NCBI RefSeq assembly: GCF_963921235.1
Contig: NC_086108.1
Location: forward strand, 2,356,001-2,420,000
Origin: Mobula hypostoma
Lineage: Eukaryota
Reading direction: 5' to 3'
DNA length: 64,000 nt
Within the stretch, counting starts at the first letter, position 1. Each line of letters starts with the position of its first letter. Both the position numbers and the translations under genes were made by a program. Positions 29,701-63,978 of this stretch are shown here, piece after piece. The notes below the pieces were generated by a model. The model made no database searches, was not told where the DNA came from, and saw only the letters and a list, made by a program, of their open reading frames with translations.

Positions 29701-30742
29701 TCAGCCATACACATTAATATATCTGATCATGCTATTCTTGCACTCATTAGCACGTGGCACAGGCAGCAATCCTGAGATTACCACCCTGGAGGTCCTGCTT
29801 TTCACCTTCCTACCCAAATCCCTGAATTCTCTCTTCAGGACCTCCTCCCTTTTTCTACCTATGTCATTGGTACCAACGTGTCCCAAGACTTCTGGCTGTT
29901 CACCCTCTCCCTTCAGAATATTCTGCACCCAATCCAAGACATCCCGTACCCTGGCACCTGGGAAGCAACATACCATGCTGGTATCTCTATTAGGTTGCCA
30001 GAACCTCCTGTCTGTTCCCCTCACTATGGAATCCCCTATGACTACCGCATTCCTCATCTTCCTCTTTCCATTCTGCACCACGGAACCAGGCTCAGTGCCA
30101 GAGACCCGATCACTGTGCTTGTCCTCCGTCAGTTCACCCCCCTGAACAGCATCCAAAACCAGATAACGATTATTGAGGGGAATGGTCACAGGCACAGGGG
30201 TGCTCTCTACTATCTGAGCTTTTCCCTTCGCTTCCCTGACTGTTACCCACTTATCTAACTCCTGCAGCCTCCGGGTGACTAACTGCCTGTAGCTCCTATC
30301 TATCTCCTGCTCACTTTCCCTGATAAGCTGTAGGTCATCGAACCGCAGCTCCAGATCCCTAACACGGTCTCTCAGGAGCAGCATCTCGGTGCACCTGGTG
30401 CAGATGTGGCTATCTGGGAGACTGAAAGATTCCCAGGATTCCCACAGCTGACCTATTCCTCAAAAAATACAAGGAAAAACAAAGTCCACTTCCCTCGCCC
30501 AAGCCCGAATGAACCAAATCACTACCAGTCTGACTCAGACCACTCCAATGATGACCGCTGCTTTGATGAACACTAGGCATTGTCTCCTTTTTATGCCGGA
30601 ATCTTCCCTGCTCTCCAACACAGGATTGATGTGCCGGTTATAGCGAATTCCCGCGAAACTCTCCCTTTTAAACTTTGCTTACAGACACGTGCGCCACCTC
30701 CTCTGTCGTAGCTCTCCAACTCACGATTGGTGCACCGGTTGT
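26755..30742 (-). mobile_element. Near-full-length CR1 LINE (5'UTR, SGNH-esterase ORF1, APE-RT ORF2), disrupted
   Basis: ORF1: CTRC knuckle, coiled region, VIGDSIVR, FPGA, HVGTND and DGLH. ORF2: GDFN, SDH, LDFQKAFD and GVPQGSVLG. Frameshifts and internal deletions present. Confidence 0.93.
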
Positions 30743-30949: not shown

Positions 30950-33900
30950 AGGACGGTCATGGGGCGGGGGGGGGGAACGTACGCCAGACGGTCACAGGGG
31001 GAACGTACGCCGGATGGTCACTGGGGGGGGGGAAACATACGCCGGACGGTCACGGGGGGGGGGGGAACGTACACCGCACGGTCTCGGGGGAAACGTACAC
31101 CAGACGGTCACTGGGTGGGGGGGAATGTACAACGGACGGTCACGGGGTGGGGGGAACATACAACGGACGGTCTCGGGGGAAACGTACACCAGACGGTCAC
31201 TGGGTGGGGGGGAATGTACAACGGACGGTCACGGGGTGGGGGGAACGTACACCGGACGGTCACTGGGGGGGGGGAAACGTACAACGGACGGTCACGGCGG
31301 GGTGGGGGGGAGGAACGTACGCCGGACGGTCACAGGGGGAACGTACACCGGACAGTACTGGGGGGGGAACATACACCGGACGGTCACGGGGGGAACGTTC
31401 ACTGGACTGTACTGGGGGGGGGGGAGGAATGTACGCCGGACGGTCACGGGGGGAGGGGGACGTACAATGGACGGTCACGGGGGGGGGGACGTACAACGGA
31501 CGGTCACGGGTGGGGGACGTACACCGGACAGTCATGGGGGGGGGGAACGCACAATGGACGGTCACGGTGGGGGGGGAATGTACGCTGGACGGTCACGGGG
31601 GGGGGAATGTACAACGGACGGTCACGGGGGGAATGTATGCTGGATGGTCACCGGGGGGGGGGGGGAACGTACGCCGGACGGTCACAGGGGGAACGTACGC
31701 CGGACGGTCACGGGGGGGGGGAACGTATGCCGGACGGTCATGGGGGGGGGAACGTACGCCGGACGGTCACGGGGGGGGGAACGTACACCAGACGGTCACG
31801 GGAGGAACGTAAGCTGGACGGTCATGGGGGGGAACGTACGCCGGACGGTCACGGGAGGAACGTACACCGGATGGTCACGGGGGTGGGGGGAGGAACATAC
31901 GCCGGACGGTCACGAGGGGAACGTTCACCGGACTGTACTGGGGGGGGGAGGAACGTACGCCGGACGGTCACGGGGTGGGGGGAGGAGGAACGTACGCCAG
32001 ACGGTCACCGGGGGGAATGTACACCGGACGGTAACTGGGGGGGGGGGAGAAACGTACAACGGACGGTCACGGGGGTAGGGGGACGTACAATGGACGGTCA
32101 CGGGGGGGGGGAACGTACAACGGACAGTCACGGGAGGGGGACGTACACCGGACGGTCACGGGGGGGGCATGGAACGCAGAATGGACGGTCACGGTGGGGG
32201 GGAATGTACAACGGATGGTCACAGGGGGAATGTACGCTGGATGATCACGGCGGGGGGGGGAATGTACAACGGACGGTCACGGGGGGAATGTACGCTGGAT
32301 GGTCACCCGGGGGGAACGTACACCAGACGGTCACGGGAGGAACGTAAGCCGGATGATCATGGGGGGGAACGTACACCGGATGGTCACGGGAGAGGGAGGA
32401 ACGTACGTCGGACGGTCACAGGGGGAACGTACGCCAGATGGTCACGGGGGGGGGAGGAACGTACGCCGGACGGTCACGGGGGGGGGTAGGAACGTATGCC
32501 GGACGGTAACGGGGGGAACGTACGCCAGACGGTCACGGGAGGAACGTACGCCGGACGGTCATGGGAGGAACGTACGCTGGACGGTCACAGGGGGAACGTA
32601 CACCGGACGGTAACTGGGGGGGGGGGGGGAACGTACAACGGACGGTCACGGGGGGAGGGGGACGTACAATGGACGGTCATGGGGGGGAACGTACAACGGA
32701 CGGTCACGGGGCGGGGGAACGCACAATGGACGGTCACGGTTGGGGGGAATGTACAACGGACGGTCACAGGGGGAATGTACGCTGGATGGTCACGGGGGGG
32801 GGAATGTACAACGGACGGTCACGGGGGGAATGTACGCTGGATGGCCACCGGGCGGGGGAACGTACGCCGGACGGTCACGGGCGGGGGGGGAACATACGCT
32901 GTACGGTCACTGGGGGAGGAACGTACACCGGACAGTACTGGGGGGAACGTACATCGGACGGTCACGGGGGGAACGTTCACTGGACTGTACTGGGGGGGGG
33001 GAGGAATGTACGCCGGACGGTCACAGGGGGAACGTACACCGGACAGTACTGGGGGGGAACGTACACCGGACGGTCACGGGGGGAACGTTCACTGGACTGT
33101 ACTGGGGGGGGGAGGAATGTATGCCGGACGGTCACGGGGGGAATGTACGCTGGATGGTCACCGGGGGGGGGAATGTACAACGGACGGTCACGGGGGGAAT
33201 GTACGCTGGATGGTCACCGGGGGGGGGGGGGAGGAACGTACGCTGGACAGTCACGGGGGGGGGGGGAACGTACGCCGGATGGTCGGGAAACGTATGCCGG
33301 ATGGTCACGGGGGGGCGGGAAACGTATGCCGGACGGTCACGGGGGGGGGTATGTACGCCGGACGGTCACGGGGGGGGGGAACGTACACCGGACGGTCACG
33401 GGAGGAACGTAAGCCGGACGGTCATGGGGGGGAACGTATGCCGGACGGTCACGGGAGGAACGTACGCCGGATGGTCACGGGGGGGGGGAGGAACGTACGC
33501 CGGACGGTCACGGTGGGGGGAGGAGGAACGTACGCCGGATGGTCACGGGGAGGAATGTACACCGGACGGTAACTGGGGGGGGGGAAACGTACAACGGACG
33601 GTCACGGGGGGAGGGGGACGTACAATGGACGGTCACGGGGGGGGGAACGTACAACGGACAGTCACGGGAGGGGGACGTACACCGGACGGTCATGGGGGGG
33701 GGAACACACAATGGACGGTCACGGTGGGGGGGAATGTACAACGGATGGTCAAGGGGGGGACGTACGCCGGATGGTCACGGGGGGGGGGAGGAACGTACGC
33801 TGGACAGTCACAGGGGGGGGAAACGTACGCCGGATGGTCACGGGGGGGCAGGAAACGTATGCCGGATGGTCACGGGGGGGGCGGGAAACGTATGCCGGAC

Positions 33901-36900
33901 GGTCACGGGCGGGGTATGTACGCCGGACGGTCACGGGGGGGGGGGGAACGTACACCGGACGGTCACGGGAGGAACGTAAGCCGGACGGTCATGGGGGGGA
34001 ACGTACACCGGACGGTAACTGGGGGGGGGGGGAAACGTACAACGGACGGTCACGGGGGGAAATGTACACCGGACGGTAACTGGGGGGGCGGAATGTACAA
34101 CGGACGGTCACAGGGGGGAGGGGGACGTACAATGGACGGTCACGGGGGGGGGGAACATACAACGGACGGTCACAGGTGGGGGACGTACACCGGACGGGCA
34201 CGGGGGGGGGGGAACGCACAATGGACGGTCACAGTGGGGGGGAATGTACAACGGACGGTCACGGGGGGAATGTACACCGGACGGTAACTGGGGGGGGGGG
34301 GAAACGTACAACGGACGGTCACGGGGGGAAATGTACACCGGACGGTAACTGGGGGGGCGGAATGTACAACGGACGGTCACAGGGGGGAGGGGGGGAGGGG
34401 GACGTACAATGGACGGTCACGGGGGGGGGGGAACATACAACGGACGGTCACAGGTGGGGGACGTACACTGGACGGGCACGGGGGGGGAACGCACAATGGA
34501 CGGTCACGGTGGGGGGGAATGTACAACGGACGGTCACGGGGGGAATGTATGCTGGACGGTCACGGGGGGGGGAATGTACAACGGACGGTCACAGGGGGAA
34601 TGTACGCTGGATGGTCACCGGGGGGGGGGGGAGGAACGTACGCTGGACAGTCACGGGGGGGGGGGGGACGTACGCCGGATGGTCGGGAAACGTATGCCGG
34701 ATGGTCACGGGGGGGCAGGAAACGTATGCCGGATGGTCACGGGGGGGGCGGGAAACGTATGCCGGACGGTCACGGGCGGGGTATGTACGCCGGACGGTCA
34801 CACGGGAGGAACGTAAGCCGGACGGTCATGGGGGGGAACGTACACCGGACGGTAACTGGGGGGGGGGGAAACGTACAACGGACGGTCACGGGGGGAAATG
34901 TACACCGGACGGTAACTGGGGGGGCGGAATGTACAACGGACGGTCACAGGGGGGAGGGGGACGTACAATGGACGGTCACGGGGGGGGGGAACATACAACG
35001 GACGGTCACAGGTGGGGGACGTACACCGGACGGGCACGGGGGGGGGGAACGCACAATGGACGGTCACAGTGGGGGGGAATGTACAACGGACGGTCACGGG
35101 GGGAATGTACACCGGACGGTAACTGGGGGGGGGGGGAAACGTACAACGGACGGTCACGGGGGGAAATGTACACCGGACGGTAACTGGGGGGGCGGAATGT
35201 ACAACGGACGGTCACAGGGGGGAGGGGGGGAGGGGGACGTACAATGGACGGTCACGGGGGGGGGGGAACATACAACGGACGGTCACAGGTGGGGGACGTA
35301 CACTGGACGGGCACGGGGGGGGAACGCACAATGGACGGTCACGGTGGGGGGGAATGTACAACGGACGGTCACGGGGGGAATGTATGCTGGACGGTCACGG
35401 GGGGGGGAATGTACAACGGACGGTCACAGGGGGAATGTACGCTGGATGGTCACCGGGGGGGGGGGGAGGAACGTACGCTGGACAGTCACGGGGGGGGGGG
35501 GGACGTACGCCGGATGGTCGGGAAACGTATGCCGGATGGTCACGGGGGGAGGGGGACGTACAATGGACGGTCACGGGGGGGGGAACGTACAACGGACAGT
35601 CACGGGAAGGGGACGTACACCGGACGGTCACGGGGGGGGGGAACACACAATGGATGGTCACGGTGGGGGGGAATGTACAATGGACGGTCACGGGGGGAAT
35701 GTACGCTGGATGGTCACCAGGGGGGAACGTACGCCGGACGGTCACGGGGGGGGGGGCGGGGGGAACATACGCTGAACGGTCACTGGGGGAGGAACGTTCG
35801 CCGGACAGTCAGGAGGGGAACATACGCCAGACGGTCATGGGGGGAACGTACGCCGGAAGGTCACGGGGGGAGTGTACGCTGGAAGGTCACGGCGGGGGAA
35901 TGTACAACGGACGGTCACGGGGGGAATGTACGCTGGATGGTCACCAGGGGGGAACGTATGCCGGAAGGTCACGGGGGGGGAACGTACGCCGGAAGGTCAC
36001 GGGGGGAGTGTACGCTGGAAGGTCACGGCGGGGGAATGTACAACGGACGGTCACGGGGGGAATGTACGCTGGATGGTCACCAGGGGGGAACGTATGCCGG
36101 AAGGTCACGGGGGGGGGAACGTACGCCGGACGGTCACGGGGGGAGTGTACGCTGGAAGGTCACGGCGGGGGAATGTACAACGGACGGTCACGGGGGGAAT
36201 GTACGCTGGATGGTCACCAGGGGGGAACGTATGCCGGAAGGTCACGGGGGGGGGGCGGGGGGAACATACGCTGAACGGTCACTGGGGGAGGAATGTACAA
36301 CGGACGGTCACAGGGGGAATGTACGCTGGATGGTCACCGGGGGGGGGGGGGGGGGAGGAACGTACGCTGGACAGTCACGGGGGGGGGGGGGACGTACGCC
36401 GGATGGTCGGGAAACGTATGCCGGATGGTCACGGGGGGAGGGGGACGTACAATGGACGGTCACGGGGGGGGGAACGTACAACGGACAGTCACGGGAAGGG
36501 GACGTACACCGGACGGTCACGGGGGGGGGAACACACAATGGATGGTCACGGTGGGGGGGAATGTACAACGGACGGTCACGGGGGGAATGTACGCTGGATG
36601 GTCACCAGGGGGGAACGTATGCCGGACGGTCACGGGGGGGGGGCGGGGGGAACATACGCTGAACGGTCACTGGGGGAGGAACGTTCGCCGGACAGTCAGG
36701 AGGGGAACATACGCCAGACGGTCATGGGGGGAACGTACGCCGGAAGGTCACGGGGGGGGAACGTACGCCGGACGGTCACGGGGGGAATGTACGCTGGAAG
36801 GTCACGGCGGGGGAATGTACAACGGACGGTCACGGGGGGAATGTACGCTGGATGGTCACCGGGGGGGAACGTACGCCGGAAAGTCACGGGGGGGGGAACG

Positions 36901-37101
36901 TACGCCGGACGGTCACGGGGGGAGTGTACGCTGGAAGTTCACGGGGGGGGAATGTACAACGGACGGTCATGGGGGGAACGTACACCAAACGGTCACGGGG
37001 GGGGGAACGTACGCCGGACGGTCACGGGGGGAGTGTACGCTGGAAGGTCACGGGGGGGGAATGTACAACGGACGGTCATGGGGGGAACGTACACCAAACG
37101 G
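30950..37101 (+). repeat. G-rich, CpG-rich minisatellite, about 6.15 kb, unit about 25-35 bp
   Basis: Unit GGACGGTCAC-(G)n-AACGTACGCC with variants. Roughly 200 units estimated from length. Confidence 0.97.
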
Positions 37102-37339
37102 TACCAAGTCAGCTATGAACCCAGGTGATTGGGGTCATGGGGCTCCAGTTCTACTGGCTTTGCCACAGTGACACCGATTTGAAAAGTGTCACGATTTTCT
37201 CTTACTTTACTAAGATTAGATGAAAGAGATTTGAATCAATGGGAGGGCGTTACTGTGAATCAAAGGGGGAGGAGGGTGTGTAGGAGTGGAGGATTGTCAC
37301 ACACTCTAAGCTTTGTCACGTAAGTGACATTTTCTTCAT

Positions 37340-37960: not shown

Positions 37961-38429
37961 TTAATCACCCTCTCTATATCTCATTCAATCAGAGAATCTT
38001 TGCTTTCATAAATAATGAACTACAACACTGCTTAGCACATTCAAACATTTGGAAACTTAAGCGCAGGTGCTTTAAGGAATAATGCAACCACATCTGATGT
38101 GGTTGGGAAACTTGGCTCTGAACCAAGACTGTCAATGCTTTCATCTGTGGCTCAACCAACAGCTCTCTTTCCTCTGACTCAGAATTCTGCGGATTCATGT
38201 TCCATTCCAGAGACTAGAGCCCAAAACCCAGCCCAATTATCCCAACACATTACTGGGAGACGGCAGATATCAAACCACAAATTGCCAGAAACAATTAGCA
38301 GGTCAGCCAGCATCCATGGAAAAAACAATTCAATCCTGATGTGGGGTCTTTGAGCTGAAACATTAACTCTCTTTCACTCTCCACAGATGCTGCCCAACTA
38401 GTTGTGCGTTTGTAGTATTTTCTGTTTTT

Positions 38430-38843
38430 TTTTGGCGTGTGCCTGCGTGCGTGTGAGTCTGTGCGTGTGTGCGTGTGCGTGCATGTGAGTCTGTGCGTGT
38501 GAGTCTGTGCGTGTGTGCGTGTGTGTGCATGTGAGTCTGTGCGTGTGAGTGTGTGAGTCTGTGCGTGTGAGCGTGTGCATCCGTGATGATGTCTTTTTCA
38601 TGGCCTTTTACAAGGCACTGAACAAGACAGAGAGAGAGAGAGAGACTGTGTGGCGTGCCACTCCCCACACAGACACCTTTGCAGTATTTTCCCTTTTTTC
38701 TATTTTACAAGATCGGGTTGTGATCTCGACACTCACCCCAGCATGGATGGAAAGCATACTCGGGAGCAGACCCAACTGGTTTCGAACCCGGGAACCTCCA
38801 CTCCCGAGTCCGGCGCCGATGTCTTTGAACCACCAACCGGCCC
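38430..38843 (-). mobile_element. tRNA-headed SINE with CA-rich microsatellite, poly(A) tail and 15-bp TSD
   Basis: Head gggccggttggtgg... with B-box gggttcgaaacc. TSD gtattttctgttttt at 38415-38429 and 38844-38858. Inserted into a PLE terminal remnant. Confidence 0.75.
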
Positions 38844-43240: not shown

Positions 43241-44885
43241 ATTGTAGCACGTCAAAAGCCTATGAGAAAAGAACTGGGGGGAATGGGTCAAACTGTACAA
43301 CTTCCTGCTTATGATGGCGCTACTGAAGGCGGGTGACAGCTCACTGGCAGTTCGAAAGGTACGACATTTGACTAAAAACATTAATTACAACACCTTTCCT
43401 GAAGTAAATTGTGGTAGGCTATCACTGTGAACAAAGGCAAAGAGCATTCGAGAGATGAGCCGTGCTGGGAATTGGCTTTGGGGTTGGAGTGAGCGATTCA
43501 GAGAGGAGAATCAACGCCCATCTGACTCTGAGCTCACTTGAGAACGGCTTCTGGCTGGGCACCGAGGTCTAGGCCCAGAGCGTATCACTGCAGGGGGGCC
43601 CTGGTCCTAATGTGGGGCACCACGTAAATGCCGGCCCAGATGGACTGGAAAGGCAGGGTGTCAGGACAGGAGTTGAGGGATGGGTCGATCTTTCACTGAG
43701 GCTGCGAGACTGCTCCAACTGCTAGGCTTCGTGTTGTGAGCTTCGCGGCGATTTACCCTACTAATGTGAGGAACTGAGACCCAGGCTTTGGGCCTACTGC
43801 AGGCTCCTCTGGAGATCCGAATCTGAGGACTCAATTTGGTTCAGAATGAAGCTGTGGCTTGCTTCTATTGTTTGCATGAGTTGTGCTTTTATTCTCTTTC
43901 TCTCTGCAAATTAAGTGTTGGCCTTTTTTTCTTTCATAGGGTTCTTTCGGGTTTCTTGCCTTGTGGCTGTCTTTAAGTCAACAAATCTCAAGGTTGTACA
44001 ATTTATACATTCTTTGATATTAAATGTACTTTGAAACTTTACCATAGAGTAGAAACAGGCTGAGTGTGGTACAGGGCTCTGAGAACAGGAGCGACTCGCT
44101 GAAGGAATAAAGATATCACCCGTAGTGGGGTGACTCATACTCGAACTGAGAGCAGCCAACCATTCATGGTTTTAATGAAATGATGCATCATGGAACAGAA
44201 GGAGCTCACTGACTTGCACTCACACACTCTCGTGCGTTTTCACGAGTTACCGAAAATCAGAGTCTTTCCGAATGACTGAGGCCGTGCCACGCACGTCCTC
44301 ATGAGAATCTCAGCTTTGTAGTCTCTCATGTACCTTTTGAAGTGTTGTAACATTGGAAACATTACAACAGGGTAAAACCCACCCTACCATTGAGCACATC
44401 TACATGAAACACTGCCACAGGAAAGCAGCATCCATCATCAGGGACCCCTACCATCCCGGACATGCTCTCTTCTCGCTGCTGCCATTGGGAAGGAGATTCA
44501 GCAGCCTTAGGACTCACACCACCAGGTTCAGGAACTGTTATTACACCTCAACTTTCAGACTCCTGAACCAGAGGGAATAACTTCACTCACTCCATCATTG
44601 AAGAGAACAGTCAGGAAAGTCGGTAGAAGTGATTTTCAGAAGACCTTTCACAAGATGCTGCACGAGAGGCCGTGGTATTAAAAGAAAGATACAGACATGG
44701 ATCTAGCTGAGTGGAAGGAGGCAGTGAGTGGAATAAAGGGAGTCTTTTCCGGTTGGCAGCCAGTGACTAGTGGTGTTCCATAGGGGTCAGAGTTGAATCA
44801 CCTAGTTTTCATGTTGTACATCAACGATTTGGATGACTAAATCAATAGGACTGGTGAGCAGTTTTGGGTGCCTTATCTGAGAAAT

Positions 44886-47734: not shown

Positions 47735-48281
47735 CACGAGGAATTCTGCAGATGCTGGAAATTCAAGCAACACACATCAAAGTTGCTGGTGAACGCAGCA
47801 GGCCAGGCAGCATCTCTAGGAAGAGGTACAGTCGACGTTTCAGGCCGAGACCCTTCATCAGGACTAACTGAAGGAAGAGCTAGTAAGGGATTTGAAAGGG
47901 GGAGGGGGAGATCCAAAATGATAGGAGAAGACAGGAGGGGGAGGGATGGAGCCAAGAGCTGGACAGGTGATAGGCAAAAGGGATATGAGAGGATCATGGG
48001 ACAGGAGGCTCAGGGAGAAAGAAAGGTGGGGGAGGAACCCAGAGGATGGGCAAGGGGTATAGTCAGAGGGAGAAAAAGGAGAGAGAGAGAGAAAGAATGT
48101 ATGTATATAAATAAATAACGGATGGGGTACGAGGGGGAGGTGGGGCATTAGCGGAAGTTAGAGAAGTCAATGTTCATGCCATCAGGTTGGAGGCTACCCA
48201 GACGGAATATAAGGTGTTGTTCCTCCAACCTGAGTGTGGCTTCATCTTTACGGTAGAGGAGGCCGTGGATAGACATATCAG
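47735..48281 (-). mobile_element. Truncated PLE with 8-bp TSD
   Basis: TSD aatcctac at 47727-47734 and 48282-48289. Near-identical to 58185-58706. Confidence 0.88.
47830..47865 (-). ncRNA. Minimal type I hammerhead ribozyme motif, intact core
   Basis: AGUC-CUGAUGA-AGGGUCUCGGCCU-GAAAC-GUC-GACU. Confidence 0.8.
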
Positions 48282-48914
48282 AATCCTACGACAAGATTGC
48301 AGTCCTCTTGGAGGCCATAACCTGCTTACAGTGTGATAATTCACATCTTCAAGATAAATATCAATATCCAAAGGAAACAGAATATGCAACACCACATTTA
48401 TAACCTGGCCACCGGTCTCTTCCTTTCATCATGCCATGGTAATATAGCGGTTAGCATGACGCTCTACAACGCCAGTGATCTGGGTTCAATTCCCACCACA
48501 GTATGTAAGAAGTTTGTAATTCTCCCTGTGGTTGCCTCCCATATCTGAAAAATGTAGGGGTGACTTGTGAACATGCTGTTTAGCTGGAGGTATGGTGACA
48601 CTTGCAGGCTGCTGTCATCACATTCTCACTGTGATGGCATTTTTTTTAAGATACATCGCGGTGTAGGCCTTTCTGGCCCTTTGAGCTGATTAAACCCTGG
48701 CCTAATTACGGGACAATTTACAATCACCAACTTCTCACTGGCTGCTACTGGAGGAAGATGTCTACAAATGACTGTCTCTCTTCCTCTCCACCACCCTCTC
48801 ACTCGCTGTCCCCGAAGAGAGGTTCCTGTGTTCAAAGTTTCTCCCCCTCCCCCTCTTCCCCATCGATGCTGTCGGAGGATAATATCAGAGTTCTGGGTCT
48901 TGGGCAAGATTTAA

Positions 48915-49075
48915 TCAAAGAACAGTAGGTTTTTGGACTGTGAGAGGAAGCTGGAGTACCTGGAGGAAACCCACACGGTCACGGGGAGAATGTACAAACT
49001 CCTTACTGTCAGTGGTGGGAATTGAACCTGGGTCACTGGTACAATAAAGCGTTGTGCTAACCACCACACTACTGG
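48915..49075 (-). mobile_element. V-SINE/HE1-type SINE
   Basis: B-box caggttcaattcc and V-domain gagtttgtacattctccccgtgaccgtgtgggtttcctcc. Similar copies at 48440-48560 (+) and 57810-57950 (-). Confidence 0.78.
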
Positions 49076-49635
49076 CCATCCTAAGATGGTTGTTGACGCA
49101 AACAGCATATTTCACTATATATTTTGAAATGTGTGTGACAAATAAACTAATCTTTGAGTAAGGGGAATTACTTAGTTCCGATTACCACTAAGTGGGGATC
49201 TCGGGGATTACTGGGTTGTCGAAATTCCCCTGTGGAGTCGGGGGCTGGCTTTTTGTAGTAGTGGGTGACATCTAGTGGAAGATGTGTGATAGTGCAGCTT
49301 TTCCTGTCAGTGCCAATGCATGAACGATCCAGTCATAGCAGATTTAGATTATATACAGATTAATTTACTGATCACTTGTACATCAAAACATAGGTTGTGC
49401 TGGTTGTTAATGCAAATGATGTATCTCACTCTAATGATGTGCTGGCGGCAGCCGGTGAGTGTCACCACACAACATAGCACGCCTACAACATTCACAAGCA
49501 ACAACAACATCCCACCCACACACACATACGGGCCTCCAATCCCAGGACAAAATCCTTAGTCCCAATCTCTCAGACAACTACTGTAGTAGCAGCCCAATTC
49601 TCATTGAGCAAGGCAAATCATTGACATGGGAGTTA

Positions 49636-51340
49636 AGAGACATGAGAGTTCTCTTCCTGACGAACTTACTATATTCTACGCAAGATTCGAACAGAAGAGG
49701 AGTGTCCCGCTCCCTCCTGATGAACCGGACCTGGTGGCATCGAGATTCATCGTCACCGAGGAGGACGTTAGAAGGGCCTTCCTGAAGATAAATCCAAGGA
49801 AGGTGATGGGCTCAGATGGCGTCCCGGGACGGGTTCTCCGGGCCCGTGCAAGCGAGCTAGCTTGAGTGTTTGCTGACATCTTCAACTGCTCCTTGCTTCA
49901 GTCTAAGATCCCCTCGTGTTTTAAGAAGGCAACGATAATCCCGGTGCCGAAGAAGAGCAAGGTGACATGCCTGAATGACTATCGACCTGTGGCTCTGACA
50001 TCAATTGCTATGAAGTGCTTCGAGAGATTGGTTATGGCACACATCAACCACAGCCTACCGGTCAACCTCGACACTTTGCAATTCGCCTACCGGAGCAACA
50101 GGTCAACGGCAGATGCCATCTCTCTGGCCCTACATTCCTCCTTAGAACACCTGGAGAATAAAGACACATACATAAGGCTCCTTTTCATTCACTACAGCTC
50201 TGCCTTTAATACCATCATTCCAAATAAACTGATTCCTAAGCTCCGGAACCTGGGCCTTAGCACTCAGATCTGCAGCTGGATCTTCAACTTCCTCACAGAC
50301 AGGACCCAGGCTGTAAAAATAGGGGACAAGCTCTCCTCTACAATCACTCTGAGCACCGGTGCCCCACAAGGCTGTGTACTCAGCCCCCTGCTGTACTCAC
50401 TGTACACCCATGATTGTGTAGCCAAGTTTCCATCAAACTCAATATGTAAGTTTGCTGATGACACAATAATTGTAGGCCGTATCTCAGGTAATGATGAGTT
50501 TGAGTACAGAGAGGAAATTAAGAACCTGGTGGCATAGTGTGAAGACAATAACCTATCCTTCAATGTCAGCAAGACGAATGAATTGGTTGTTGACTTCAGA
50601 AGGCGTAGTGGACCGCACGACCCAATTTACATCGGTGGTGCGCAAGTGGAACAGGTCAAAAGCTTTAAGTTCCTCGGGGTCAATATCACAAATGACCTGA
50701 CTTGGTCCAACCAAGCAGAGTCCACTGCCAAGAAGGCCCACCAGCGCCTTTACTTCCTGAGAAAACTAAAGAAATTTGGCCTGTCCCCGAAACCCTCACT
50801 AATTTTCATTGATGCACCGTAGAAAGCATTCTTCTAGGGTGCATCACAACCTGGTATGGAAGTTGTCCTGTCCAAGACTGGAAGAAGCTGCAGAAGATCG
50901 TGAACACAGCACAGCACATCACACAAACCAATCTTCCGTCCATGGACTCACTTTACACCGCACACTGTCAGAGCAGTGCTGCCAGGATAATCAAGGACAC
51001 CACCCACCAGCCAACACACTTTTCGTCCCTCTTCCCTCCGGGAGAAGGCTCAGGAGCTTGAAGACTTGTACTGTCAGATTTGGGAACAGCTTCTTTCCAA
51101 CTGTGATAAGACTGCTGAACGGATCCTGACCCGGATCTGGGCCGTACCCTCCAAATATCCAGACCTGCCTCTTGGTTTTTTTGCACTACCTTACTTCCCA
51201 TTTTTCTATTTATGATTTATAAATTAAATTTTTAATATTTACTATCAATTTGTAATCTAGGGAGCGGGAAGCACAGAATCAAATATTGCTGTGATGATTG
51301 TACGTTCTACTATCAATTGTTTGGCGACAATAAAGTATAA
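49636..51340 (+). mobile_element. Rex/Babar LINE, RT to 3' end
   Basis: 223-aa [13 protein letters not shown]...[10 protein letters not shown]...KFADD, and aataaagtataa end. Confidence 0.9.
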
Positions 51341-51881
51341 GAGAGTGTATTGGAGGAGTCCAACTCAGCCGCAGAATAGTTCATTTTTGCTCAAGTCCTC
51401 CTCCGTAATCATCTGACTGCTCAGACTCTTCCTGATCAGCCTCTTCTCTGTAGACATGAGGTCATCTGGAGTTCGTCTGAATGCATCCCACTTGCATCAT
51501 ATCTCTAATTTATTGCTGATAGTGCTTACTGGCCTAACATGGTCCCTGTTTAAGCAATGCCTGAATTTGCAAATTTTCTTCCTTGCTTCCAAATCGTACC
51601 ATGATATTTTCCCTCCAATATCACTGCTATGAGTTGGAGGAGATTTGGTATGTCACCAAAGGCACTTGCAAATTTTTTTACAGACGTACCATTAGAGTAT
51701 TCTAATTGGCTGCATCACCATCTGGTATGGGGGGGAATGAAATAAGCTATAGAAAGTTGTAAAATTAGTCAGCTCCATTATCGGCATTAGCTTTGCCAGC
51801 ATTCAGGACATTTCCAAGGAGCGATGCCTCAAAAAGGTGGCATCAATCATTAAGGACCTTCAGCACCCAGGACATGCTGCC

Positions 51882-52385
51882 CTCTACTGCCATGATGAGG
51901 CTAAACTCAGGTTGGAGGAGCAACACCTCATATACTGTCTGGGCAGTCTCCAGCCCCTTGGTATGAACATAGAATTCTCCAACTTCCGGTAATTCCCTCC
52001 CCCTCCCTTCCCCTATCCCTATTTCACTCTGCCCCCTCCCCCAGCTGCCTATCACCTCCCTCTTGGTTCCACCTCCTACTACTACCCATAGTGTTTTCCC
52101 CTATTCTTTCTAAACCTTTCCTGCCTATCACCTCCCTGCCTCCCTTCCCCCACCCCTTTATCTTTCCCCTTACTGGTTTTTCACCTGGAACCTACCAGCC
52201 TTCTCCTTCCCACCCCCCCCACCTTCTTTATAGAGCCTCTGCCCCTTCCCCCTACAGTCCTGATGAAGGGTTCCGGCCCGAAACAGCGACCAATCTTTTC
52301 CACGGATGCTGCCCGACCCGCTGAGTTCCTCCAGCGTGTTGTGAGTGTTGCTTTGACCCCAGCATCTGCAGATTATTTTGTGTTT
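51882..52385 (+). mobile_element. Truncated PLE inserted in a Rex fragment; degenerate hammerhead at 52257-52290
   Basis: Approximate TSD acatgctgcc (51872) / acatgccgcc (52386). GIY-YIG C-terminus LRLEEQHLI. Motif CTGATGA...GAAAC-AGC. Confidence 0.82.
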
Positions 52386-54204
52386 ACATGCCGCCTTCTC
52401 ATTGCTACCATCAGGGAGGAGATACAGGAGCCTGAAGACACACATTCAACAATTCAGGAACAGCTTCTTCCCCTCTGCCATCAGATTTCTGAATTGACAT
52501 TGAACCTATGGACATTGTGTATATATATGTGTGTGTGTATATATGTATAGAAATATAACATACACCAGTAAGTATATAAAAATATACTTTAATCTAGTTC
52601 TTAGTATGTATTGCAATGTACAGGCTGTTGCATAAACACAAATTTCACAAAATGCCGGTGATATTAAACCTGATTCTGACTTACTCCAATTCTGTTAATT
52701 CCCAAGATTTATTGTAGGCCATGTTTTTAACAATCGTCTATCTCCAATACTTCCACATCCCTCTGCTCCTGCATCATTTAGTACAGTATCCCCTCTGTCC
52801 TTCCATACCTTATCAGATGACACTCAAATAGACATGATTGCAGATAGTGAAAAAAGTAATTAAAAAAAACTACAAGGGGATTTTGATCAGCTAGGTAAGG
52901 GGACCAAGGAATGACCTATATTAATCAATGCCTCTATTATTCTACTGAGCATAATGCATCAGTTCACATAAACACAAGAGATTCTACAGGTGCTGGAAAT
53001 CCGGAGCAACACACACAAAATGCTGGAGGAACTCAGCAGGTCAGGCAGCGTCCATGGAAATGAATGAACAGTTGCTTTTTTGGGCTGAGACCCTTCATCA
53101 GGACCAAAACCACTTCTCATATCTTCACAATGAATTTCATTTGCCCCTTCCTTGGAACTGGAATTGATTTATTATTGCTGCATGCAGTGAGGTGCAGTGA
53201 AACTTTTGCCTTAAAATGATTACCCAAAACATTGAGTATTACAGGATAAAACATCGAGGATATCTTCATGCTGCTTTAAAAAGGCAGCACCTATCATAAG
53301 ACCATAAGGTAGAGGAGCAGAATTAGGCCATTTGGCCCATCGAGTCTGTTCCACCATTTCATCATGACTGATCCATTTTCCCTCTCAGCCTCAAACTCCT
53401 TCCTCCTCCCTGTATCCCTTTATGCCCTGACTAATCAAGAATCTATCAACCTCTGCCTTAAATATGCCCAATGACTTGGCCTCCAAAGCCGCCTGTGGCA
53501 ATTAATTCCACAGATTCATCCCTCTCTTGCTAAAGAAATTCCTCCTCTGTTCTAAAAGGACGCCCCTCTATTCTGAGGCTGTGTCCTGTTGTCTTAGACT
53601 CTCCCACCATAGGAAACATCCTCTCCGCATCCACTCTACTGAGGCCTTTCAATTTTTGATAGATTTCAAAAAGGTCATTCCTCATTCTTCTGAATTTCAG
53701 CAAGTACAGGCCCAGAGCCATCAAACACTCCTCATATTCGATCTTAGAATCATTTTTGTTAACTTCCATTTTCAATGTCAACATTCATAACATACTGCCT
53801 TTTCATTGCTACCATCAAGTAAGAGGTACAGGAGCCTGAAGGCACACATTCAACATTTTGGAAAGGTTTCTTCCCCTCTACCATCAGATGCTGTTCATTT
53901 ATTTATAGATACGGCACAGTAACAGGACTCACCAACGCAGTACTGTTCCCAATTACACCCATGTGTCCAATTAAACTAATCCCCCCCCGCCTCTAGTCCC
54001 CACTCTGACCTTCTACCTCTTCTCACCTGCCTATCATTTTCCCTGGGTCCCCTCTCCTTTCCTATCAGATTCCTTCCTCTGCAGCCCTTGACCTTCAGCT
54101 AGCCTCCTTCCCCTCCGGCCCCCCATTTATTCTGGTATCATCCCTCTTCTTTCTCAGTCCTGATGAAGAATCTTGTCCTGAAATGTCGACTGTTTGTTTA
54201 TTTC

Positions 54205-57200
54205 ATAAGATATACAAGATATTGGAGCAGAAGTAGGCCATTCGGCCCATTGAGTCTGTCCTGCCATTCAATCATGGGCTGATCTAATTCTTCCAGTCAT
54301 CCCCACTCCCCTGCCTTCACCTCGTACCCTTTGATGCCCTGGCTAATCAAGAACTTATCTATCTCTGCCTTACATACACCCAATGACTTGGCCTCCACAG
54401 CCACTCATGAATGGATGTCCTTTAATCCTGAAGTCGTGCTCTCTTGTCCTAGAATCGCCTACCATGGGAAATAACTTTGCCATATCTAATCTGTTCAGTC
54501 CTTTAACATTTGGAATGTCTCTATGAGATCCCCCCTCATTCTCCTGAACTCCAGGGAATACAGCCCAAGAGCTGCCAGACATTCCTCATACGGTAACCCT
54601 CTCATTCCTGGAATCATTCTGTGAACCCTCTCCAATGTCAGTATATCCTTTCTAAAATAAGGAGCCCAAAACTGCACACAATACTCCAAGTGTGGTCTCA
54701 TGAGTGCCTTATAAATCTTCAACATCACATCCCTGCTCTTATATTCTGTACCTCTAGAAATGAATGCCAACATTGCATTCGCCTTCTTCACAACTGACTC
54801 AACCTGGAGGTTAACCTTTAGGGTATCCTGCACAAGGACTCCCAAGTCTCTTCGCATCTCTGTATTTTGAATTCTCTCCCAATCCAAATAATAGTCTGCC
54901 TGTTTATTTCTTCCACCAAAGTGCATAACCATACACTTTCCAACATTGTATTTCATTTGCCACTTCTTTGCCCATTCCCCTAAACTATCTAAGTCTCTCT
55001 GGAGGCTCTGTTTCTTCAACACTACACACTCTTCCACCTATCTTTGTATCTTCGGCAAATTTAGCCACAAATCCATTAATACCGTAGTCTAAATCATTGA
55101 CATACATCATAAAAAGCAGCGGTCCCAACACCGACCCCTGTGGAACTCCACTGGTAACTGGCAGCCAGCCAGAATAGGATCCTCTTATTTCCACTGTTTT
55201 CTGCCGACCAGCCAATGCTCCACGCATGCGAGTAACTCCCCTGTAATTCCAAGGACTAAGCAGACTCATCTGTGGCACTTTGTCAAAGGCCTTCTGAAAA
55301 TCCAAGTACACCATGTCTACTGCATCTCCTTTGTCTACCCTGCTTGTAATTGACTCAAAGAATTGCAGTAGGTTAGTCAGGCAGGATTTTTCTTTCAGGA
55401 AACCATGCTGGTTTTGGCTAATCTTGTCATGTGCCTCCAGGTACTCCGTAATCTTATCTCTAACGATCGATTCTAACAACTTCCCAACCACTGATGTCAG
55501 GCTATAGTTTCCTAAACACAAAGTACTCTGCAGATGCTGGGGTCAAAGCAACACTCACAACACGCTGGAGGAACTCAGCAGGTCGGGCAGCATCCGTGGA
55601 AAAGATCGGTCGACGTTTTGGGCCGGAACCCTTTGTCAGGACTGTAGAGGGAAGGGGCAGAGGCCCTATAAAGAAGATGGGGGGAGAGTGGGAAGGAGAA
55701 GGCTGGTAGGTTCCAGGTGAAAAACCAGTAAGGGGGAAGATAAAGGGGTGGGGGAGGGGAAGCAGGGAGGGGATAGGCAGGAAAAGTGAAGGAGGAATGG
55801 GGGAAAGATCAATGGGTAGTAGAAGCGGAACCATAGTTTTCTTTCTGCTGCCTCTCACCTCTTAAATAGTGCAGTAACATTTGCAATTTTCCAGTCTTCC
55901 AGTACAGTGCCAGAATCTATCGATTCTTGAAAGATCATCATTAATGCCTCCGCAATCTCCCCAGCTACTTCCTTCAGAACCCGAGGGTGCATTCCATCAG
56001 GTCCAGGAGATTTATCCACCCTCAGACCGTTAAGCTTCCTGAGCACCTTCTCAGTCATAATTTTCACTGCAAAAACTTCACTTCTCTGACACTCTTGAAT
56101 GTCTGGTATTCTGCAAACATCTTCCACTGTGAAGACCGATTGTAAAATATGCATTCAGTTCCTTTGCCATCTTTGCATCTCTCATTACAATATCTCCAGC
56201 ATCATTTTCTATTGATCCTATATCTATCCTCGTTCCTCTTTTACCCTTTATATACTTAAAAAAGGTTTTAGTATATTAGTCGCTAGCTTCCTTTCATAAT
56301 TCAGCTTTTCCTTCCTAATGACCTTCTTAGTTTCCTTCCGCAAGTTTTTAAAAGCTTCTTGATCCTCTACTTTCCCACTAGCTCTGGCTTCCTTGTATGT
56401 CCTTTCTTTTGCTTTTACTTTGGCTCTGACTTCACTTGTCAGTCATGGCAGTGTCCTTCATCCCTTTGAAAATTTCTTCTTATTTGGAATGTATCTGTCT
56501 TGCACTTCCCTCATTTTTCATAGAAACTCCAGCCATTGCTGCTCTGCTGTCCTTCCTGCAAATGTCCCTTTCCAGTCAACTTCGGCCAGTTCCCCTGTCA
56601 TGCCATTGTAATTTCCTTTATTCCACTGAAATACCAACACACTGGATTTTATTTTTTCCCTCTCAAATTTCAATATGAATTCAATCATATTGTGATCACT
56701 GTTCCCTAAGGGTTCCTTAACCTTAAGCTCTCCTATCACCTCTGGATCATTGCACAACACCCAATCCAGCACAGCTGATCCCGTAGTGGGCTCAACAACA
56801 AACTGTTCTAAAAAGCCATTCCTTAGACATTCTACAAATTCTCTCTCTTGAGGTTCAGTACTGGCCTGGTTTTCCCAATCCACTTTCATGTTAAAATCCC
56901 CAAAGATTATCATGACCTTGCCCTTCTGTCACGCCTTTTCTATCTCCTGCTGTAATTTGTAATCCACATCCCGGCTGCTGTTTGGAGGCCTGTATACAAC
57001 TGCCATTAGGGTCCTTTTACCCTTGTCATTTCTTAACTCACCCCACAGAGACCTTACACCTTCTAATCCAATGTCATCTCTTTCTAACGATTTAATATTA
57101 TTTCTTTTACACAGAGCCACACCACCCCCTCTGTCTACTAACCTATCTTTCCGATACACTGTATATCTTTGGATGTTCAGCTCCCAATGGCAGCCATCCT

Positions 57201-57720
57201 TTAGCCAAGTTTCAGAGATGGCCACAACATCATACTTGCCAATCTGTAGCTGGGTTTTAAGATTGTCCATGTGTCTATTGCCCTGTAACTCATGCCACTG
57301 GCTGTGATTAAGCCTCATCCCCTGCCTGTTCTTTCTATAATCTCTGTTGCATGCTATCTTTGATTAATTTCTGTTTTCCCCTTCCTCAGCCCTATCATTC
57401 CGGTTCCCATCCCCCTGCCAAATTAGTTTAAACCCTCTCTAACAGCTCCATTAAGTGTGCCTGCTAGGATATTGGACCCCTTTGGGTTCAGGTGTAACCC
57501 GTCCTTTTTGTACAGGTCATACCTCCCCCAGAAGAGGCCCCAGTGAACCAGGATCTGAATGCTTGCCCTCTACACCAGTCTCTCAGCCACACATTATATG
57601 CCTGATCATGCGATTCTTGCACTCGTTAGCATGTGGCACAGGCAGCTATCCTGAGATTACTACCCTAATGATCCTGCTTTTTAGCTTCCTACCTAACTCC
57701 CTGAATTCTCTCTTCCATGG
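54205..57720 (-). mobile_element. CR1 LINE (ORF1 3' part plus ORF2), same subfamily as 26755-30742
   Basis: VAISETWL, GDFN, SDH, LDFQKAFD and KFAED motifs. Colinear with the 26755 copy. Confidence 0.92.
55514..55832 (-). mobile_element. PLE terminal-repeat insertion in CR1 ORF2
   Basis: Reverse complement of 52075-52385. Approximate TSD atagtttcct / atagttttct. The 27843-27880 copy shows the empty site. Confidence 0.85.
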
Positions 57721-57987
57721 GTGCTACCTGTCCTGCTGAGTTCCTCCGGCATTTTGTGTGTGTGGCTTTGGATTTCCAGCATTTGCAGACTTTTCTCATG
57801 TTTATAACCTTCTACCTGTATGCCTTTGGGTGGTGGTAGGTAATTGGAGAGCCTGGTGAAACCCATGTGGTAACGGGAAGAATGTACAAACTCCTTCCAG
57901 ACTGCAGTGGGAATTGAACCTGGGTCACTGGCTCTTCAGTCACTATGCTATGGCGCTGCCCTATTTGAATGGCCCATGAACCTATAG

Positions 57988-58706
57988 TGAGGCGACACTT
58001 CACCTGTGAGTCGGCTGGGGTGATATACTGTGTCCGGTGCTCCCGATGTGGCCTTCTATGTATTGGTGAGACCCGACGCAGACTGGGAGATCGTTTTGCT
58101 GAACACCTATGCTCTGTCTGCCAGAGAAAGCAGGATCTCCCAGTGGCCACACATTTTAATTCCACGTCCCATTCCCATTTTGACATGTCTATCCACGGCC
58201 TCCTCTACTGTAAAGATGAAGCCACACTCAGGTTGGAGGAACAACACCTTATATTCCATCTGGGTAGCCTCCAACCTGATGGCATGAACATCAACTTCTC
58301 TAACTTCCGCTAATGCCCCACCACCCCCTCGTACCCCATCTGTTACTTATTTTTATACACACATTCTTTCTCTCACTCTCCTTTTTCTCCCTCTGTCCCT
58401 CTGACTATACCTCTTGCCCATCCTCTGGGTCACCCCCCCTCCTTTCCTTCTCCCCGGACCTCCTGTCCCATGATCCTCTCATATCCCCTTTTGCCAATCA
58501 CCTGTCCAGCTCTTGGCTCCATCCTTCCCCCTCCTGTCTTCTCCTATCATTTTGGATCCCCCCCTCCCCCTCCCACTTTCAAATTTCTTACTAGCTCTTC
58601 CTTCAGTTAGTCCTGACGAAGGGTCTCGGCCTGAAACGTCGACTGTACCTCTTGCTAGAGATGCTGCCTGGCCTGCTGCGTTCACCAGCAACTTTGATGT
58701 GTGTTG
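57988..58706 (+). mobile_element. Penelope-like element 3' part: GIY-YIG endonuclease plus terminal repeat
   Basis: FTCESAGVIYCVRCSRCGLLCIGETRRRLGDRFAEH...LEEQHLIF...GMN. TSD ctatag at 57982-57987 and 58707-58712. Confidence 0.9.
58609..58644 (+). ncRNA. Minimal type I hammerhead ribozyme motif, intact core
   Basis: AGUC-CUGACGA-AGGGUCUCGGCCU-GAAAC-GUC-GACU, on the same strand as and downstream of the GIY-YIG ORF. Confidence 0.82.
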
Positions 58707-59054
58707 CTATAGATGACACCTCTCGTTTTGCACTTTGTATTATTAAATATATTCTGATCAGAATAGAATAGAACTTTATTGTCATTGCTCAAGAGAGTGA
58801 GATTGTGGTGCTACTCCATTCCATGCAAAACAGATAACTTACAATGCACGGACAATTCCTATACTCACTTGCAACAAGTGACTTTGATAGACCGTAACAC
58901 TCAAAGGCCATTGGCAAGCCGGGGTGTAGCAATATTCAGCTGCACAACAGCCCTGGGGAAGAAGCTGTATTTCAGCCTTGCTGTCTTGGCTAAGATGTTT
59001 CTGTGTCTCCTACCAGATGGCAGGAGATTGAACAGACAGCGTCTGAGATGGGAT

Positions 59055-59730
59055 CCGTCCACCACGAAAAGCAGGATCTCTCGATAGCCACCCATTTCAA
59101 TTCCATTTCCCATTCCTATTCCGACGTGTCAGTCCATGGCTTCCTCTACTGCCACGATGAAGCCACACAGGTTCAAGGGGCAACCCCTTACATTCCGCCT
59201 GGGTAGCCTCTAACCTGATGGCATAAACAGTGACTTTTTCGATCTACAAGTAACTGTCCCAACCCCCTCCACCATCACCCCCCAGAGCCCCATCCACCAC
59301 CCACCCCACCCCTCAGTACTACCCCCCGCTCCCCCAACAAACCCCCTCCACCACCCTCCCCACCCCCACCTCCTACTCCCACCATTCACCCCCCCACCCT
59401 CCACTCCTACCCCTCACCCCCCCACTCCCTCCACCCCTCCACTCACACACCCCTCACCATTCCCGTTTTCCTCTTTCACCTCACCTGCCTCTCACTGGTG
59501 CTTCTCCCTCCCTCCCTTCCTTCCATGGGCTGCTTTCCTCTCCTGTCAGATTTCCCCTTTATCTCTTTCACCAATTGACTTCCCAACGCTGTCACCTACC
59601 AGCTTGCACTCCTTCTTCTCGCCTGATTTCCTCCCCAGTGCTGCCGAAGGGTCTCGGCCTGGAACGTCGATGCCGCCGGACCTACTGAGTTTGTGTGTGT
59701 CTGTGTTGCTTTGGATTTCCAGCATCCATC
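59055..59730 (+). mobile_element. Older PLE 3' fragment with expanded C-rich tract (59255-59460) and decayed hammerhead
   Basis: DLSIATHFNSISHS remnant and ctgccgaagggtctcggcctggaacgtcga. Confidence 0.75.
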
Positions 59731-59904
59731 GTGTTTGCTAAAATATGTCTACCTTCTGGGAATAGCCAGCACTACAACTACTTACCACGCCTTTCTGAGC
59801 TTCCTGCTTTAAATTCGTGAATTTAAATGGTCACAGCAGAATATTTAATCGTGAGGGACCCTTCAGAAAGTTTCTCCCTCCAGCCTGGGATAATGTGGCT
59901 TTAA

Positions 59905-60560
59905 GGGAGTGGGATCCGCCCCCTTTCGCTCATCTGATTGGTGGCGCGGAACGTCCATCAAGGCGTGGGGGGAGGCCGGCTTCCGGTGTCGTCGCGTCGC
60001 GTCGCCGTGTACAGAGCGAGAGCGAGCGCGCGCGCGCGAGAGCGAGCGGCTGAGGGCGATTAAAAGAAGAAAAAAAAGATTTAAAAGGAAAAGCCATCGG
60101 TTTTTTTCTTTCTCCTCATGTGGAGTTAGTCTGCGGCGGTCACCGAGTCGGTTGATTGTTGGTGGAAATTGAGCGCGGAGATAAACACTTCAGGTAAAAC
60201 AGTGAGGCCTAATAATGGATGTGGAGAAATTAATTTGTTTTTTTAAAATCCCCGCAGCAGGCGCGACTTTCACCTTTCTCTAAGCAGGTAATCAACGCTC
60301 TTTCTCTCTGTGTGCCTGGACATGTAGGGTGTCTTATTTTACGAATTTATATATAAATTTAGGTTTGCCGGTGGAAAGTTGTGAATCAGGAGCGCAATTG
60401 GAGTGGGAGCCACACCGGACCGGAAGTGGCGGTGTTGTGATTGAATGACGGTCGTGTTTGCCAATCAGAGGGCAACCTGATTATTGGGTGACCAATCGGC
60501 GAGCGGCTGAGTAGGCACATTGTTTGATTGACAGTCCTGTCGAGCCCTGGTATGTGTTTG
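59905..60560. promoter_or_regulatory. CpG-island promoter region of an unidentified gene
   Basis: Dense CpG. GC box 59916, ATTGG 59937, ETS cttccgg 59980, CCGGAAGT 60420, CCAAT/ATTGG at 60397, 60461, 60483 and 60492, TGATTGACAG 60525. Confidence 0.8.
59990..60193 (+). other. Probable non-coding first exon (start approximate)
   Basis: Follows the GC box/CCAAT/ETS module and ends at donor CAG|GTAAAA (60193/60194). Confidence 0.5.
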
Positions 60561-61109
60561 TGTGTAAACATTCAAGTCACTAACAAGACTGAAGGTTATT
60601 ATACAGCTGTGCTTTAATTTAGTCCGCAGGGTTGTTTTGCATCCGCTTGTGGTATCGTGAAATGAGGCGGCTGAGAGGTTAATCCTTGTTATTTAAATTG
60701 CAGTACTTAAAACTTTTGAGCAACTTTTAGCTGGAGTGTCGGTATCCAGAGGAGACAGGAGCCAAAATTTCGGCAGTAATGTCAATGGTGATAAATTATC
60801 AGCTTTATGTAAGCCAGGAGGTTTTATCATTGTCACAAAGGGGTGGAAAGAGTAATGAGATTTTATTTTTACAAAATCACAGCAACAAGCTTTCAGTTGC
60901 ATTGTGGTGATGCAGTCTTAAGGTTTGTACTTCCTATCTAGTCCGTGTAAGGATGTCAAATGGCTTTTTTGTCTGAGCTGGAAAGATTTGGAATTTTTTT
61001 TTAGCTGCAAAGTTTGAATGAGACAAAGGAGGGTAAGCCTTTTAAAATGAAGGGAAGGCTTTCTTCTTTCCGTATGTCATTTAAAAAACAATCCTTTGCT
61101 TCGCAAGCG

Positions 61110-61326
61110 ATTCTGCAGATGCTGGAAATCTTGAGCAGCACAAACAAAATGCTGGAGGAACTCAACAGCTCAGGCAGCCTCTATGGAAAGGAATAAAAAG
61201 GTCAAGACCCTTTAAGACTCGTGCGAATCTGGTGAAGGGGCTTGGCCTGAAATATGGACTCTTCAATCCCCTCCATAGATGCTGCCTAACCAGCTGAGTT
61301 CCTCCATCCTTCTGTGAGTTGCTCAA
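61110..61326. mobile_element. Inverted pair of PLE terminal-repeat remnants
   Basis: ggaggaactcaacagctcaggcagcctctatgga is followed by tccatagatgctgcctaaccagctgagttcctcc, its approximate reverse complement. Confidence 0.72.
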
Positions 61327-61899
61327 TACTTAGTCTCACTTTTCCCAGTTCTGATGCAAGGTTTATGACCTGGAACTAACTCCTTGCCTTCCGGAGAAAT
61401 TCCAACATCTGCTTTTACTTTGCATTTCTGAAAACAAGTAGTCATAAGGTGTTTTATGGACCAGGTATTAGAGACATTTTGATGCTGGGCCGTATGGAGA
61501 TATTAGAAGAAGTACCCAGAGAATGTTGATTTGAAGATTAGAATAAAAAGCTGCAGCCTGCAGTCAATGAGCAATGCAGCGGTAAATTGAACTGAACATT
61601 CCCAGACTATTTCAATGCCTCTGTGGTTTGATGTTTTGTGCTTTTCACTCGTTTCTGCAGTTTGCATGATTTATTCTTTGTATTTTTGCATGTTGGGTGT
61701 TTGAACCTCTTTGGGTTCTGTGGTGTTTTTGTTTCATAGCTCTCTATAGGAAGAAGAATCGCAGGGTTGGATAATGATAAAAAGTGTACTTTGAAATTTT
61801 GGTGGTAAAGATTATGTACCTATTAGGTTATTTGAAACTGAGCCAGGTTTGCTGATGCCCTTTAGAGAAGGATAGTTTGGCTGTCTACAGTCATACATT

Positions 61900-63683: not shown

Positions 63684-63978
63684 AAAGTTCAAAGTAAATT
63701 TTGTTATCAAAGTACATGTATGTCAGCACATACAACCCTGGGATTCATTTTTGTGCGGGTGTACTCTCAATGATGGGAGAAGTGAATGTAGTTATCCCCC
63801 TTTCGTTCAAGAGCCTGATGGTTGAGGGGTAGTAACTGTTCTTGAACCTGGTGGTGTGAGTCCTGAGGCTCTTGTACCTTCTACCTGATGGCAGCAGTGA
63901 GAAAAGAGCATGGCCTGGGTGGTGGAGATCTCTGTTGGTGGATGCTGCTTTCCTACAACAGCATTTCATGTAGATGTG
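63684..63978 (-). mobile_element. Rex/Babar 3' fragment
   Basis: HPGHALFSLLPSGRRYKSLRTHTTRFKNSYYPSTIRLLN plus the common 3' tail. Confidence 0.8.

Follow-up and report, generated by a model that had tools for sequence, protein, structure and literature searches.

Minimal hammerhead ribozymes (min-HHRs) have been known since 2014 from the Penelope-like elements (PLEs) of metazoans. They were reported in the Xena, Poseidon and Neptune elements of fishes and by the thousands in coelacanth and Xenopus, and their marks in that account are an additional letter separating position 9 from 10.1, strong conservation of the G10.1-C11.1 pair, and a palindrome at 15.2-16.2 (Cervera and De la Pena 2014, PMC4209133). 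As described there, a motif without a helix III loop is unable to build the active core as a monomer. In the dimer, the two ACGU strands pair, helix I becomes intermolecular and each core cuts the partner strand (PMC4209133), with G12 of the hammerhead serving as the base and G8 as the acid (review PMC6155905). For the Schistosoma motif, monomer cleavage is reported as undetectable and dimer cleavage as low (PMC4209133). In the anole, a PLE hammerhead cleaved only once the protein of the element had been added, catalytic mutants left insertion in vitro unaffected, and no read of the RNA-seq described in that study starts or ends at the cut site (PMC11167929). In addition, Naiads are described as spreading without canonical hammerheads (PMC8557442), and the role of PLE hammerheads is presented as still open (PMC8557442, PMC11167929).

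A motif of this kind is found at 58609-58644 (+) in the window analysed here, a stretch of 64,000 nucleotides from the ray Mobula hypostoma (NC_086108.1, positions 2,356,001 to 2,420,000). We hold with considerable confidence that it is the min-HHR of the pseudo-LTR of a high-copy PLE of the Neptune type in a myliobatiform ray, and that at 58609 it survives as a young, passive relic that most likely cuts no host RNA. The class, a minimal type I hammerhead of PLEs thought to act as a dimer, is the one proposed by an earlier note on this DNA, and the letters of the motif support it.

Letters, helices and predicted folds of the motif

Read directly from the sequence, the letters of 58609-58644 conform to a minimal type I hammerhead that has the palindrome ACGU and an intact core, as the earlier note had described them; CUGANGA, GAAA and UH are all present. 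Helix I consists of four Watson-Crick pairs between AGTC (58609-12) and GACT (58641-44) and is extended by a U58608·G58645 wobble. Next to its first strand lie the core CTGACGA (58613-19; CUGACGA in RNA), an extra unpaired A (58620), helix II with the letters GGGT-CTCG-GCCT (58621-32; strands 58621-24 and 58629-32, the first pair being G·U) and GAAA (58633-36). The palindrome ACGU (58636-39) makes up the whole of helix III, which has no loop. CG follows GAAA, then TC (58639-40), and the cut is predicted after C58640 in the numbering of PMC4209133. A second motif with the full core and palindrome lies at 47830-47865 (-); it had also been called intact, and it differs from the 58609 copy at a single letter, N7 (CUGAUGA).

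The earlier note had paired helix II as AGG with CCU. This register does not hold up well, as the first pair of helix II forms in five of nine copies of the window with AGG/CCU and in all nine with GGGU/GCCY after the unpaired A, and the isolated hairpin is calculated at -1.1 kcal/mol in the former register and at -2.3 kcal/mol in the latter. The unpaired A between positions 9 and 10.1 is itself found in nine of nine copies. Because helix II starts after this extra A, the two intact copies carry G10.1·U11.1 and not G-C. Positions 10.1 and 11.1 are paired in every one of the nine copies, as G-C in four and as G·U in five, both young copies included, while consensus rows built from the loose ends of older copies in public runs show CCC ahead of GAAA. 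U11.1 may have arisen through CpG decay or may characterise the young subfamily.

A scan with hammerhead models, which had been suggested as a check, gave a divided answer. A structural descriptor gave five matches in the window, two of which include the palindrome; in 200 shuffles of the window, the respective means were 0.05 and 0.01 matches per shuffle. One of the five matches (20018, -) is unrelated to the PLE repeat. By contrast, the Rfam covariance models returned seven matches in the window at E up to 5, none of them a hammerhead. This result, together with folding z-scores of about zero, would suit a chance match to a short motif. Such a coincidence is refuted by the descriptor shuffles and by the position of the motif in a PLE tail, which is where the class is known to occur (PMC4209133), and we give it practically no credence.

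In the nearest-neighbour model, the monomer preferentially folds into an inactive rod (-10.0 kcal/mol). In folds of 76 nt and 161 nt, the upstream pyrimidine tract is predicted to pair with the core, hiding CUGA. For 58605-58650, the hammerhead dimer is calculated at -11.1, the best dimer at -32.7 and two monomers at -24.4, contacts within the core being outside the model; the hammerhead dimer would be held by one helix of 4 bp and two of 4-5 bp.

One reading of these features is that the motif of the youngest subfamily is already non-catalytic, with U11.1 and with CUGA hidden in the upstream hairpin, and is carried along as a passenger or as a protein-binding structure. The G10.1·U11.1 pair of both young copies, set against the CCC of the older consensus, would fit this reading, as would the predicted pairing of the pyrimidine tract. 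The in vitro insertion of the anole PLE despite catalytic mutations (PMC11167929) and the spread of Naiads (PMC8557442) point in the same direction. Nevertheless, neither young copy has lost C17, the palindrome or any of the 11 scored core letters, and G·U still pairs. Moreover, copies decay most commonly from CG to TG, which makes two independent events plausible. A loss of catalysis in the subfamily is doubtful, though it deserves some weight; for the 58609 copy itself, it is compatible with the preferred reading of a passive relic.

The parent element and its other copies

The motif is carried by a 5′-truncated PLE of 722 bp (57987-58708, +), delimited by a tblastn start at 57987 and by the loose ends of other copies. 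TATAG is present at both ends of the element (57983-87 and 58708-12), and this pair is possibly a target duplication or microhomology. Other copies in public runs continue past both 57987 and 58708; thus, the copy in the window is cut short at its 5′ side and is without the last part of its 3′ end. The missing 3′ terminal part is present in a second young copy, a member of the same subfamily, at 47766-48284 (-), which contains a GIY-YIG end, the 3′ region and the motif at 47830-47865, with U11.1 as well. The two copies are 91.6% identical over 534 columns by blastn, with 28 mismatches in 517 aligned letters.

Within the 58609 element, 57987-58313 (+) is an open C-terminal tail of a GIY-YIG endonuclease with its stop TAA at 58311-13 and without any reverse transcriptase (RT) part. 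In Pfam, the GIY-YIG match of this frame (E=0.0014, 19.3 bits) lies just under the cut-off of 22.6. The motif begins 296 nt 3′ of the stop, and a full element with two repeats is absent from the window. The tail is 96% identical over 101 aa to a Mobula hypostoma protein (P0001) and, among ten protein matches, 73-86% identical to four proteins of Hypanus sabinus; Mobula or Hypanus is the source of eight of the ten. It aligns to the C-terminus of P0001 and P0003, whose N-terminal parts hold the RT region with YIDD/YVDN. A CX2-5CxxC linker is found in seven of the ten relatives (in P0001 at residue 236) and is truncated away in the window copy. Such a linker between RT and endonuclease is given as a mark of Neptune and Nematis (Craig et al., PMC8557442). 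By the order of RT and GIY-YIG and by the linker, the parent element would be a PLE of the Neptune type.

The PLE family that carries the motif is plainly very large. In DNA run X1, contig depths over 58626-58746 add up to 7.0 million, compared with 17-24 on the unique flank, although summed depth is not equivalent to copy number. Two further observations concern PLE sequence outside the motif copies. An RT fragment at 12568-12777 (-) is 61-67% identical to P0001 and P0003 and precedes a PLE end piece (12344-12440) that lacks the motif part. The Hypanus models P0003, P0005 and P0010, which bear the host names DIPK1C, mucin-2 and ABHD14A isoforms, are made up in part, or for the most part, of this PLE frame; they are annotation artefacts or exonised repeats.

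All ten motif sites that the earlier note had named were located, within 1-2 nt wherever an exact place had been given. A scan by edit distance found nine sites at distances of 0-9, with none at 9 or less in ten shuffles on both strands. The tenth, at about 38333, has an edit distance of 11, which is chance level for the motif alone, and is recognised through a longer repeat match of a strongly decayed copy (38327-38433, +; nhmmer, E=1.8e-5). A further faint trace at 61346-61381, at edit distance 12, is likewise at chance level. The spacing of "every few kb" holds locally, with eight of the ten copies in 47830-61260, and fails elsewhere, as the first 47.8 kb contain two. A recognisable GIY-YIG tail precedes four of the ten (47865, 52256, 58609 and 59637). 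Scans for the motif pattern in metagenome contigs, viral contigs and prokaryote genomes found no copies.

The copies other than the two young ones had been called decayed, and this label fits most of them. It is too strong for 16415-16450 (+) and 54156-54191 (+), which keep all 11 core letters and C17 and have lost the palindrome; the former reads ACAT and has C11.1, and the latter reads ATGT and has a broken helix II. An older PLE fragment directly 3′ of the 58609 element (58955-59716, +) has a motif at 59637-59672 (+) with A6 and A13 changed and the palindrome kept. A copy of another subfamily at 52256-52291 (+), 3′ of a GIY-YIG tail at 51873-51989, has lost U16.1; a closely related copy at 55608-55643 (-; 90% over 313 nt) has lost G8 and G12. 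G12 and U16.1 are lost at 53070-53105 (-), and A6 and C17 at 61225-61260 (+). This last copy and an inverted end piece at about 61103-61242 (-) stand back to back. Inverted pairs of PLE ends in this arrangement, which has been described for PLE insertions (PMC8557442), were noticed at 61103-61324 and at 38271-38433.

Motif changes concentrate at CpG sites. The palindrome ACGT is present in four of nine copies, including 58609 and 47865, and the CpG of helix III (15.2-16.2) is changed in the other five, in three of these to plain TG or CA. The two young copies differ from each other at 1 of 36 letters in the motif and at 27 of 481 in the flank (Fisher p=0.71), and an unbroken core of 14 letters would be expected by chance with a probability of 0.45 at this divergence. 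As the motif is no better kept than its flank, the youth of the copies would explain why these cores are intact. When seven older copies are compared with 58609, 8 of 77 core letters and 41 of 175 other letters differ (p=0.016), a test biased by the choice of these copies for their likeness to the motif. The lower divergence of the core fits selection in the parent lineages, and selection on the copies could produce it as well. Stem covariation, which had been named as a check on the ribozyme, did not rise above shuffles in the nine window copies (339 of 500 shuffles reach the score), a sample too small to settle the matter.

Several other repeats were observed in the window. A G-rich minisatellite at 30966-37102 (6.1 kb, unit of about 26-30 bp, GC 0.66) has an observed/expected CpG ratio of 1.0-1.18, against 0.33 elsewhere; it would be young or unmethylated, and its G-runs may form quadruplexes. 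At 17654-18411, eight tandem units of 95 bp share 97% identity and match the ends of dispersed repeats at 44371-44590 and 63782-63978, as in a recent array derived from the end of a LINE. A nearly intact LINE at 20501-23220 (-) contains three frames (139, 483 and 294 aa), and the 294-aa frame has RVT_1 and ALKBH8_N matches. Related LINE copies, which we take to be CR1-like, lie at 26804-30459 (-) and 54392-57715 (88% over 1450 nt), the former with a weak GDSL esterase match at 29704-30459. Finally, a 67-nt inverted repeat at 43177-43243 matches mir-9256 on both strands with 34 bits, against a gathering score of 80, and is probably a small hairpin repeat.

Host transcripts near the motif

The CpG promoter that had been placed about 1.3 kb from the motif is real, as an island, and the distance is right: observed/expected CpG is 1.23 at 60001-60500, against 0.33 in the window with the satellite excluded. 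The first exon of a gene on the plus strand starts from it (60023-60193, +), with the donor CAG/GTAAAA at 60193/60194. A contig of 4849 nt matches 60023-60194 without difference and departs at the donor, and depth in this bin is 66 and 15 in two runs, compared with 0-6.5 in adjacent bins. The RNA nature of both runs, which covered 57900-61500, is a guess, and the direction of the transcript is taken from the donor letters, as contigs carry neither strand nor ends. Since the gene starts 1.38 kb 3′ of the motif and runs away from it, the motif is outside its transcript. A significance of the closeness to the promoter, to which the earlier note had drawn attention, is not supported, the spliced RNA starting at about 60023 and heading away. 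The decayed copy at 61225-61260 is within the first intron of this gene.

A divergent spliced RNA from the island is also weakly suggested. One contig matches 59598-59820 inside a repeat (223 of 314 letters agree; depth 5.1) and departs at GTAGGT on the minus strand, which makes 59600-59820 (-) a candidate exon with a donor-like GTAGGT at 59599 (-). Such an RNA would possibly contain 58609-58644 as antisense, and 47830-47865 would be sense to it only if the RNA, for instance through its first intron, extended more than 11.7 kb further. The CpG island at 59600-60550 may be a two-way promoter. A second cluster of what we take to be CCAAT and CCGGAAGT motifs was seen at about 60420-60500 in the island region. 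A Pfam scan of 173 of the 191 listed non-repeat frames (the other 18 overlap LINE frames) revealed no host exon, and an Unkempt-like zinc finger match at 4817-5059 was set aside (22.6 bits against a cut-off of 27; 0 stretches).

For two motifs of one transcript to cut each other, an intact partner is needed in cis. The sole neighbour of 58609 on the same strand within 2.5 kb is the motif at 59637, whose core is broken; as it has lost A6 and A13, it is unable to cut C58640. Similarly, the minus-strand copies upstream of 47865 (53105 and 55643) have lost G12.

These results bear on the proposal of the earlier note that intact copies cut host transcripts that read through them. In such a scenario, dispersed intact copies would cut host or read-through RNA, by pairing in trans or with the help of PLE protein, and would serve as a genome-wide signal for decay or termination. 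The size of the family and its presence in runs guessed to be RNA are in its favour, and the anole hammerhead does cleave when the protein of the element is added (PMC11167929). Furthermore, P0003, P0005 and P0010 of Hypanus contain the PLE tail in sense, and a divergent first intron of more than 11.7 kb would read 47830-47865 in sense. Against this, 58609 is upstream of the plus-strand gene and would be read as antisense by the divergent RNA, no intact partner exists in cis, monomers of the class are inactive and its dimers weak in vitro (PMC4209133), and the anole reads neither start nor end at the cut site (PMC11167929). Neither an excess of conservation over the flank in the young copies nor a stable hammerhead dimer speaks for cleavage, the dimer being weakly held in the model and far from the best fold. 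A general role in cutting host RNA is therefore very improbable. It is just as hard to credit that the youngest tails in introns and untranslated regions cut host pre-mRNA, again by pairing in trans or with PLE protein, often enough for sense copies to be selected against. If the divergent transcript of the island reached it, the copy at 47830-47865 would be the candidate for such cutting. Most likely, the 58609 copy cuts nothing in the host.

Relation to known systems

The preferred reading, a passive relic of a PLE with a min-HHR, would explain the arrangement as follows. From known PLE biology, reverse transcription would copy the 3′ end of the element first and usually stop early, and such stops would leave short motif-bearing tails scattered through the genome, as they are in the window. 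In the parent element, by analogy with described systems, the two motifs of a tandem transcript would be joined by their ACGU palindromes and exchange helix I strands, so that each core would cut the strand of the other after C17; this cutting would probably be slow and helped by the protein of the element (PMC4209133, PMC11167929). The relic at 58609, with U11.1 and with neither RT nor an intact partner in cis, would decay as its older neighbours do, chiefly through CpG deamination.

Among described systems, the min-HHRs of PLEs are the closest. Shared with them are the type I layout with a helix I of 4-5 bp, the unpaired letter between 9 and 10.1, the palindrome without loop 3, and the location at PLE ends in mostly single, dispersed copies (PMC4209133). 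The 58609 copy differs in having G10.1·U11.1 where the usual pair is G-C, and its helix II has 4 bp, compared with the 7-8 bp of the Schistosoma family (PMC4209133). The abstract, results and discussion of that study name no cartilaginous fish, and the motif described here is from a ray. Among the reports listed in a literature search, none from a ray or shark concerned this PLE family; the supplements of PMC4209133 and of the retrozyme preprint discussed below may contain motifs of cartilaginous fishes.

The Anolis Poseidon element PAc also has a hammerhead in the pseudo-LTR of a vertebrate PLE. In contrast to the truncated Neptune-type tail of the ray, PAc is an element of the Poseidon clade, with a motif that overlaps the start of the open reading frame in a tandem locus; moreover, cleavage has been shown for PAc, with protein only (PMC11167929). 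Non-LTR retrozymes, found in one chondrichthyan genome according to the preprint that describes them, likewise have type I hammerheads that originate from the pseudo-LTRs of PLEs, and they form tandem arrays with a motif in each unit, while the ray copies are dispersed (bioRxiv 10.64898/2026.07.22.740005). An identity with these retrozymes was rejected, as no motif copy falls within any of the 41 tandem-repeat rows.

Judged by its letters and its place in the element, the motif family falls within the min-HHR class of metazoan PLEs, to which the result adds a ray family. The value of the motif lies in genome-wide study and not in the locus at 58609: a young family of very high copy number offers statistical power on selection within the element and on harm to host RNA.
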